Origin: Candidatus Helarchaeota ASGARD archaeon Hel_GB_B
GTDB lineage: Archaea; Asgardarchaeota; Lokiarchaeia; Helarchaeales; HEL-GB-B
DNA length: 20,000 bases
Direction: 5' to 3'
Assembly (NCBI GenBank): GCA_005191425.1
Contig: SUPR01000067.1
Span: 1-20,000 of the forward strand
Within the stretch, counting starts at the first letter, position 1. Each line of letters starts with the position of its first letter. A model generated the notes under the pieces. That model saw only the letters and a program-made list of their open reading frames with translations, made no database searches and was not told the DNA's origin. Both the position numbers and the translations under genes were made by a program. Below are positions 13,445-14,509 of this stretch, in pieces.

Positions 13445-14509
13445 TTAATATTTGCCAAATTTTTTTCCAAATTTAACCATTAATCCTATTTGCGATAAAG
13501 TAACAGATTTTGGAAAATTATGTTGGTTCATTAAAATATACATGGATTTAGTCAGTTTATTAGTACCTGCATCAATTGCCTTTTTAACCTCCTTTTTTAC
13601 GGTATTCGGAGACCAATCGCCAAATTCAATATTGTTTAAATTTCCCATTAATACCAATTTTTCATTTGCTAGTTTTTTACAAATTGTTAAGTCATCGTTA
13701 CTGCTTAAGGTAGTTGCTGATACTCCAGACCTAATTATCTCACTTATTATACCTTGAACTTCTCCTCCAGCACTTCCTAAAATAATTGGTGCTTTAATAT
13801 TCGACGTAAGTTTATTATAAATTGGTATTACATATTTAGAAAATATATCTTTCGGTAGGACGGTGGTCGAAACAACGCCATCGACCATGAAAATCATATC
13901 GACCCCTAATTCTATTTGAATATTAGCCCAGTCAATGACGTATGGAATAATTTTTTCGATCACTTTTTGAAATTTTTGGGGCTCGATTAATAAAGATTCA
14001 AGCCATTTTGAGAGAGTAAAAAAGAATACAGGTAATGAAAAAGGGCCAGTTAATACTCCTATTATAGGTACTTTACCTTTTATTTCGCTTTTTGTAAATA
14101 ATTTGATAGTCTTTTTTGGTTCTTCATATGCTTTTGCTGAATTTACATCTGGAATTTCTATATTTAAAATATCATCTAATTGAGTAAATGGAATTGATTT
14201 TAAATTTGGATCGCCATCTACATAGAAAATTGGTTCTGCACCCCAAGGTTCTGCATCTTTTACCAAGTAAAAAAATGAAGTAACAAAGTCGTGCCCAATT
14301 AATTTTTGGAACTTAACTTGTCCATTAAAAATAAATTCACCCTTTTGATATAAACTCGGGAGATCAATATTTAATAATTCTGCTGATATACTTGTAGTTA
14401 AAGGAAATACTGGTACTCTATCTGGGATTTCTCCCGAAATAGTTGCAAATACTCTATCTAATGCAGTCATATCTTCAGAATTATTAATAGTTCTATATTT
14501 TGAGCCCAT
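13445..14509 (-). CDS. Uroporphyrinogen decarboxylase / MtaA-CmuA family protein lacking canonical Zn ligands
   Basis: Overall UroD/MT2 pattern: DRVPVFP, AEPWGAE, PIIGVLTGPFS, GVDMIFMVD and LMGNLN. The H-x-C site reads GSA and the distal GC site reads QHN. There is no RQAGR motif. Confidence 0.85.
   Translation of the reverse strand: MGSKYRTINNSEDMTALDRVFATISGEIPDRVPVFPLTTSISAELLNIDLPSLYQKGEFIFNGQVKFQKLIGHDFVTSFFYLVKDAEPWGAEPIFYVDGDPNLKSIPFTQLDDILNIEIPDVNSAKAYEEPKKTIKLFTKSEIKGKVPIIGVLTGPFSLPVFFFTLSKWLESLLIEPQKFQKVIEKIIPYVIDWANIQIELGVDMIFMVDGVVSTTVLPKDIFSKYVIPIYNKLTSNIKAPIILGSAGGEVQGIISEIIRSGVSATTLSSNDDLTICKKLANEKLVLMGNLNNIEFGDWSPNTVKKEVKKAIDAGTNKLTKSMYILMNQHNFPKSVTLSQIGLMVKFGKKFGKY

Follow-up and report, generated by a model that had tools for sequence, protein, structure and literature searches.

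The window, that is, the whole stretch of DNA analysed here, is a complete contig of 20 kb (C148) from the genome of the Candidatus Helarchaeota archaeon Hel_GB_B (3.54 Mb, 28% G+C, 94% complete). Its minus strand was found to carry a unit of four genes separated by gaps of 20, 24, and 32 nucleotides (nt), the last of which encodes a protein of 354 amino acids (aa) with the fold shared by uroporphyrinogen decarboxylase (UroD) and the methyltransferase MtaA. This UroD-like protein, which lacks the zinc ligands of MtaA, is the subject of the present study. Its open reading frame (ORF) was intact, with an ATG start and no internal stops. The gene directly upstream encodes a corrinoid protein that matched the Pfam B12-binding family (1.3e-21) and TIGR02370 (3.2e-28) and in which the DxHxxG motif reads D-Y-H-G-L-G. 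The two remaining genes encode a tandem longin/roadblock-fold protein and a small protein that looks roadblock/LC7-like in a structure search (Table 1).

Table 1. Features of the four-gene unit, with positions in the 20-kb window.
Feature	Position	Strand	Basis
Tandem longin/roadblock-fold protein, 259 aa, first gene of the unit	15567..16346	-	Profile search, AlphaFold (AF2) model, Foldseek
Predicted roadblock/LC7-like protein, 110 aa	15214..15546	-	Conserved in Asgard subclade; ESM Atlas structure search
Corrinoid protein, 215 aa, 32 nt upstream of the UroD-like gene	14542..15189	-	Pfam B12-binding, TIGR02370
Zinc-less MtaA/UroD-fold protein, 354 aa	13445..14509	-	Pfam URO-D, AF2 model, Foldseek, clade membership
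Asp74, invariant in 94/94 family members	14288..14290	-	Family alignment
Gly245-Ser246-Ala247 at the His-x-Cys ligand columns	13769..13777	-	phmmer, MAFFT, 94-member alignment
His330 at the distal Cys column	13520..13522	-	MAFFT; His in 83/94 family members

A UroD-type barrel without the zinc ligands of MtaA

The Pfam URO-D domain spanned residues 17–350 of the UroD-like protein (E 1.1e-42), and the AF2 model had a predicted local distance difference test (pLDDT) score of 95.5. A Foldseek search with this model gave M. mazei MtaA (4ay7) as the best solved structure (E 6e-23, template modelling (TM) scores 0.85/0.89), followed by HemE/UROD (TM ~0.82); thus, in the comparison with MtaA and HemE proposed in an earlier note on this DNA, both were shown to have the same fold, with MtaA closest. 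Besides, structure matches of the protein in the ESM Atlas included sizeable clusters of fusion proteins, namely barrel–DUF169 fusions (614 aa, Methylomirabilota) and fusions of the barrel with B12-binding_2 and B12-binding domains (616 aa, Pseudomonadota).

For the methylcobamide:coenzyme M (CoM) methyltransferases (MT2), a ligand set as in MetE, His/Cys/Glu/Cys, has been reported for MT2-A (PMC539065). Codon reading on the minus strand of the window showed Gly245 (13777–13775), Ser246 (13774–13772), and Ala247 (13771–13769) within PIILGSAG at the position of the His-x-Cys motif, and His330 (13522–13520) at that of the distal Cys. In the phmmer alignment with 4ay7, L-G-S-A-G-G-E of the query was placed against L-H-I-C-G-N of M. 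mazei MtaA, and a MAFFT alignment with the zinc-type paralogues of the same genome (LIHICGH...PGCDL, GIHICGN...SGCEI, and YHTCGD...AGCEW) aligned G-S-A with H-x-C and His330 with the distal Cys. The acidic residues found about 20 positions past HxC in MtaA (V-E-E-K in 4ay7) aligned with L-S-S-N of the query, so that S269 and S270 occupy the acidic-ligand columns. The RQAGR string of true UroD was searched for in the protein and was absent. The replacement of H-x-C and of the distal Cys and the lack of RQAGR had all been put forward in the earlier note, and the alignments, codon reading, and string search bear them out. The His330 column presumably resembles the His of the GHG motif in HemE, and the sequence pattern suggests that Asp74 corresponds to the Asp with which UroD binds its substrate.

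Since the protein contains a single Cys (C277, non-conserved) and two His (H73 and H330), no substitute Cys-based zinc site is possible; this rules out, for a site of that kind, the counter-case of the earlier note that other residues rebuild the zinc site. In an alignment of 94 family members, column 247, which holds the Cys of HxC in MtaA, was occupied by Ala (82), Gly (11), or Pro (1), and column 330 by His (83) or Gly (11), but neither was ever occupied by Cys. Eight Helarchaeota-type orthologues with 56–64% identity shared A247, G248, G249, H330, and about 120 more invariant columns. Because A247 and H330 are invariant in these orthologues and no Cys was found across the 94 members, the substitutions are regarded as fixed and not as noise.

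The scores obtained with NCBIfam models were far under the respective cut-offs: 108 against 244 bits for PRK06252, 103 against 235 for TIGR01463 (MtaA/CmuA subfamily), 95 against 400 for the MtaA equivalog, 74 against 600 for MtbA, and 46.9 against 303 for the hemE model TIGR01464. Compared to MtaA, MtbA, and MtsA (4AY7), the protein has the same (beta/alpha)8 UroD-type barrel of about 350 aa without large insertions and adjoins a gene for an MtaC/MtbC-type His-on corrinoid protein, but it shows about 19% identity, carries G-S-A, S-S, and His in place of His-x-Cys, the acidic residues, and the distal Cys, falls into a separate clade, and has no MT1-type methyltransferase in its operon. With HemE and human UROD it shares, besides the fold, the conserved Asp (D74), a His at the GHG-like position, and the lack of a metal, whereas it differs from them in lacking the RQAGR loop and in being paired with a corrinoid protein. 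The lost ligands, low model scores, and separate clade support, at the level of sequence, the statement of the earlier note that excludes both a CoM methyltransferase and a HemE. The labels "uroporphyrinogen decarboxylase family protein" and "MtaA" are therefore misleading for the zinc-less clade.

Distribution, phylogeny, and conserved residues of the zinc-less family

A word-based search detected orthologues with 56–64% identity in metagenome-assembled genomes of Helarchaeota and Lokiarchaeota and many bacterial relatives with 26–38% identity, some of them fused to B12-binding domains. When one genome per species was scanned, 264 loci of the zinc-less family were confirmed; they were present in Geobacterales, Desulfobacterales, Bacteroidota, Chloroflexota, Bacillota, Gammaproteobacteria (for example, Methylobacter and Allochromatium), Methanomassiliicoccales, Bathyarchaeia, and Asgard archaea. 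Two scans of metagenome contigs, one for the longin protein and one for the UroD-like orthologues, gave no confirmed relatives.

In a maximum-likelihood tree the zinc-less proteins formed one clade of 45 rows with a branch support of 100 in the approximate likelihood ratio test (SH-aLRT), apart from two groups of paralogues of the window genome, the HxC...C MtaA-like ones with their Asgard relatives and the longer MT1-like ones; the tree was a quick search, and the long branches of the paralogues make the order among them unsafe. Within this clade the window protein, its Helarchaeota orthologues, and a Promethearchaeota group formed one subclade (SH-aLRT 99). Thus, the UroD-like protein is a member of a conserved family and not a decayed one-off.

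Seventeen columns were invariant across the 94 sequences, which come from many phyla: R19, D30, P33, D74, G90, P120, P156, S158, P160, W194, G202, D210, G249, G289, N290, N292, and P333. It is therefore argued that a binding or catalytic surface has been retained. At residues at least 80% conserved in the 82 other members, the window subclade showed the replacements Y53 to L, C75 to F/Y, H245 to G, S248 to G, D328 to N, E331 to S/N, H26 to G, and E28 to I/L. The main family linked to DUF1638 (see below) keeps Cys75 (H-D-C), His245 (T-H-x-A-S-G-R), and His330 with Glu331 (D-N-H-E-I-P), and one may speculate from these motifs that C75, H245, H330, and E331 might make up a separate metal or catalytic site in place of the zinc site of MtaA. 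Most of this candidate site is gone from the window protein, and its pocket would therefore be more neutral and hydrophobic. Both a change of ligand and a loss of chemistry fit this remodelling.

The window genome was shown to contain 12 UroD-family genes, those outside the window being located on contigs C84, C17, C125, C161, C95, C171 (two genes), C39, C92, C107, and C175. Three of them (C84, C17, and C125) are canonical HxC...C MtaA-like paralogues, and the site motifs of the others read HxD...H, HxC...H, HxD...N, or contained no His. Pairs of a UroD-family gene and a corrinoid-protein gene were found on C84, C171, and C39 in addition to the window. The genome also contained a divergent gene resembling the alpha subunit of methyl-coenzyme M reductase (MCR) at C103:30835–31227(+) (36 bits, 609-aa frame), which is consistent with the alkyl-CoM reductases that reportedly occur in Helarchaeota.

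Zinc-free members of the superfamily have been described: two corrinoid methyltransferases with the UroD fold, CdmB, which acts on chloromethane, and MtvB, need no zinc, and homologues of CdmB are present in Asgard archaea (PMC13222342). Since these enzymes are zinc-free, loss of the zinc site is not in itself a loss of catalysis. CdmB and the O-demethylases MtvB/OdmB/VdmB and MtoB resemble the window protein in belonging to the UroD superfamily, in acting on a separate corrinoid protein, and in having Asgard homologues. However, these MT1 enzymes have extensions between the first beta-strands, as do the 375–434-aa paralogues of the window genome, and are encoded in catabolic operons together with a corrinoid protein and an MT2, whereas the window protein, compared with those paralogues, has no such extensions, groups apart from them in the tree, and has no MT2 partner gene; this tentative separation is based on published descriptions and on the tree of the genome's own paralogues. 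MtqA was not retained in the comparison as a UroD-fold methylcorrinoid:tetrahydrofolate (THF) enzyme, as enzymes of the CdmA/MtqA type have been modelled on pterin-binding structures (PMC13222342).

Corrinoid and signalling partners

For 78 usable loci of the family, ORFs were called and searched with hidden Markov models (HMMs) built for this analysis. A corrinoid protein of about 215 aa was encoded directly upstream of the zinc-less gene in at least 65 of them, a count which is an underestimate because an overlap filter dropped some; no other partner was constant across the clade. Fusions of the corrinoid and UroD-like proteins were found in three cases and occur in both Asgard archaea and bacteria. 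In each unit a single methyltransferase-like gene accompanied a single corrinoid protein. Downstream, a protein with an N-terminal DUF1638-like domain was encoded in 57 of the 78 loci, and Pfam searches of the downstream proteins showed DUF1638 joined to HisKA/HATPase_c, PAS-GGDEF, GAF, or REC modules. In other Asgard genomes the corrinoid/UroD-like pair was followed by histidine kinases or PAS proteins.

We know of no function assigned to DUF1638. In Phaeobacter, the split B12-dependent methionine synthase (MetH) has been shown to need both DUF1638 and a RamA-like protein (PMC5764234), and DUF1638 has been treated as part of cobalamin "recharging" (PMC12478193). A search of the window genome with PF07796 (DUF1638) gave no match. 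Stand-alone proteins of about 240 aa that follow the cassette at five loci in Desulfobacterales and Thermodesulfovibrio contained an F-P-E-Y-R-x-x-Y-L-like motif, which was also present at the N-terminus of the histidine kinase/PAS partners at four Asgard loci; the bacterial proteins showed, in addition, a C-terminal Cys-rich motif (P-I-C-x-x-C-K-K-I-R-D-D...H-G-I-C-x-x-C). The domain common to these bacterial and Asgard proteins may be where the corrinoid protein actually docks.

The window unit differs from these bacterial cassettes, with which it shares the protein clade, the upstream corrinoid protein, and a variable signalling partner, in that the DUF1638 transducer is replaced by the 259-aa tandem longin protein and the 110-aa roadblock-like protein and that C75, H245, D328, and E331 are substituted. 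These two proteins recurred with the corrinoid/UroD-like pair in eight Asgard genomes with unrelated flanking regions. Two gene orders were observed: in the window genome and one other the longin and small proteins precede the corrinoid/UroD-like pair, whereas in the six others they follow it.

A profile search with the N-terminal domain of the 259-aa protein gave 516 representative relatives belonging to a large Asgard longin family, some of which exceeded the Pfam Fuz_longin_1 cut-off and one of which was fused to a Ras-type GTPase. The AF2 model (pLDDT 83) contained two beta-beta-alpha-beta-beta-beta-alpha domains of the longin/roadblock type, and the top Foldseek matches were Mon1, Ccz1, Fuzzy/Inturned, and BLOC-3 subunits (E 2e-8 to 1e-5), the global TM scores being low because the domain arrangement differs from that of the tri-longin guanine nucleotide exchange factors (GEFs) of Rab. 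The possibility that the 259-aa protein is a divergent DUF1638 protein was rejected, as the hhalign probability was 0.06% and the DUF1638 HMM found nothing in the Asgard units. Homologues of the 110-aa protein were present in all eight linked loci; Pfam searches of the protein and these homologues gave no usable match, and an ESM Atlas structure search gave Roadblock/LC7 clusters (TM 0.67–0.71) as a lead only, by which the predicted structure looks roadblock/LC7-like. Longin and roadblock folds regulate small GTPases. In a genome of the same genus (L115:4736–6010) the longin/roadblock-like pair was followed by a B12-binding radical-SAM protein and not by the corrinoid/UroD-like pair, which again places a cobalamin-binding domain beside the longin pair.

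Full-text searches of the literature gave no description of a cassette consisting of a corrinoid protein, a zinc-less MtaA-like protein, and a signalling protein, or of its counterpart in Asgard archaea. What is new here is the Asgard version with its longin partner. Type 1 mlp clusters (Kountz and Balskus, PMC10418091) were considered as a prior description, since they also encode widespread homologues of soluble CoM methyltransferases from non-methanogens together with a corrinoid protein. They were rejected, as they contain two to three Mlp paralogues and a Ram/RACE activase, are mostly found in Firmicutes, are assigned to methyl-sulfur or methyl-selenide metabolism, and have neither the single-methyltransferase arrangement nor a signalling partner.

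Functional interpretation and other genes of the window

The pairing and fusion with a corrinoid protein, the single methyltransferase-like gene per unit, and the exchange of the signalling partner across phyla make a sensory module the most economical reading. The UroD-like barrel would set or stabilise the methyl or redox state of a protein-bound cobalamin, and the signalling partner would read this state; we give this reading a probability of about 0.5. The UroD-like protein would then act as a zinc-independent "writer" of the small His-on corrinoid protein encoded upstream, and the C-terminal face of its barrel would receive the protein-bound corrinoid, as MtaA does with MtaC. A methyl group would be moved between the cobalt and a small non-thiol molecule, or one cobalt state would be stabilised; methyl transfer to a non-thiol partner is plausible. 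The state of the corrinoid protein would be read by the co-encoded DUF1638 kinase or cyclase in most bacteria, and in Helarchaeota-type lineages, presumably through physical contact, by the tandem-longin and roadblock-like proteins.

The main alternative is that the protein is an ordinary metabolic corrinoid methyltransferase, either a zinc-free MT1 or an MT2 that transfers methyl groups to a pterin, tetrahydromethanopterin (H4MPT) or THF, feeding the Wood-Ljungdahl pathway, in which case the longin/roadblock genes would be unrelated or accessory. The gene content of the genome (12 UroD-family genes, several small corrinoid proteins, a RamA-type activase, and pterin-binding proteins) is in line with this, as are the known zinc-free UroD-fold MT1 enzymes with Asgard homologues (PMC13222342). 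Nevertheless, the tree groups the window protein with the signalling-linked cassette proteins and not with the longer MT1-like paralogues, each unit holds one methyltransferase-like gene and one corrinoid protein, and linkage to signalling-type genes is conserved across phyla and gene orders. The cassette was also found in Methylobacter, Rhodoferax, Zoogloea, and Allochromatium, none of which is to our knowledge a corrinoid methylotroph. Metabolic transfer is thus considered somewhat unlikely, and the UroD-like protein is more likely to set or read the state of a B12 sensor than to feed methyl groups into metabolism.

We consider it unlikely that the protein is a non-catalytic pseudoenzyme whose barrel does no more than bind the corrinoid protein or a small ligand, serving a sensory complex as its scaffold or conformational lock. 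None of the four MT2 zinc ligands is left, only one Cys and two His remain, and in the window subclade Gly, aromatic, or amide residues have taken the place of conserved polar ones (C75 to F/Y, H245 to G, D328 to N, and E331 to S/N), but the polar residues R19, D30, D74, S158, D210, N290, and N292 at the top of the barrel are invariant in the 94 sequences, H330 is kept in 83 of them, zinc-free relatives are catalytically active, and the remodelling of the pocket is just as compatible with a new substrate. That the protein is a genuine MT2 or a uroporphyrinogen decarboxylase with unusual residues is highly improbable. Its fold is closest to MtaA and then to HemE, and the MCR-alpha-like gene makes CoM chemistry plausible in this genome; however, this reading is contradicted already by the sequence, in which the zinc ligands and RQAGR are absent and the scores lie 3- to 8-fold under the NCBIfam cut-offs, and the three canonical HxC...C paralogues can fill the role of MT2.

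The overall reading of the earlier note, namely a protein that is neither a CoM methyltransferase nor a HemE, possibly a ligand-binding pseudoenzyme or one transferring methyl groups to a non-thiol acceptor, and suited to a signalling role, thus holds in part. The exclusion of both enzymes stands, and the signalling role fits the DUF1638 kinases and cyclases in bacteria, the histidine kinases and PAS proteins in other Asgard archaea, and the longin/roadblock proteins in the window. Loss of zinc does not establish a pseudoenzyme, given the zinc-free CdmB and MtvB and the 17 invariant columns.

Several observations weigh against a sensory module. The replacement of the family-conserved Y53, C75, H245, D328, and E331 in the window subclade could mean that catalysis was lost, and the unit contains no second methyltransferase, so that a full relay from donor to acceptor is not encoded. 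The genome has many corrinoid methyltransferase genes of catabolic appearance, as well as a RamA-like activase. Around the eight Asgard units no conserved small GTPase or other fifth gene was found, and in two of ten genomes the longin pair was present without the corrinoid and UroD-like proteins. Functional statements on the clade are based on sequence, predicted structure, and gene context.

A tentative extension of the sensory module, possible but doubtful, is that a B12 sensory module consisting of the corrinoid and zinc-less MtaA-like proteins, which would drive histidine kinases and c-di-GMP cyclases in bacteria, was rewired in Asgard archaea of the Helarchaeota/Promethearchaeota type onto multi-longin proteins resembling Mon1, Ccz1, and Fuzzy and onto roadblock proteins. 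In that case, a eukaryote-like longin/roadblock switch of the small-GTPase type would be governed by the chemical state of a protein-bound cobalamin. Corrinoid methyltransferase systems are known as catabolic machines, and B12-dependent sensing is known mainly from light-responsive proteins of the CarH/AerR type and from riboswitches; the corrinoid/zinc-less MtaA-like pair acting on interchangeable outputs would represent a different way of sensing via B12 chemistry. For longin and roadblock proteins, which belong to the "eukaryotic signature proteins" of Asgard archaea, the Asgard form of the cassette would provide a concrete input.

Another eukaryotic signature protein may be encoded in the window, as a profilin-like gene was detected at 18692–19063(-) (Pfam Profilin, E 2e-4, under the cut-off). 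It supports the Asgard origin of the contig, as do the longin-family proteins and the best homologues, which bear the names Helarchaeota or Lokiarchaeota. The contig also contained a set of genes for detoxification of oxygen or nitric oxide (NO), encoding a rubrerythrin (4428–5003(-)), a flavodiiron (flavorubredoxin-like) protein (9181–10371(+)), and an NADH:rubredoxin-type oxidoreductase (10751–11983(-)). Furthermore, an ArsR-family regulator was located between SBF/ACR3-type and ArsB/CitMHS-type transporters (5380–6471(-), 6647–7039(+), and 7655–9007(+)). This cluster, which was syntenic in the genome of the same genus mentioned above (L115), possibly confers resistance to arsenite.

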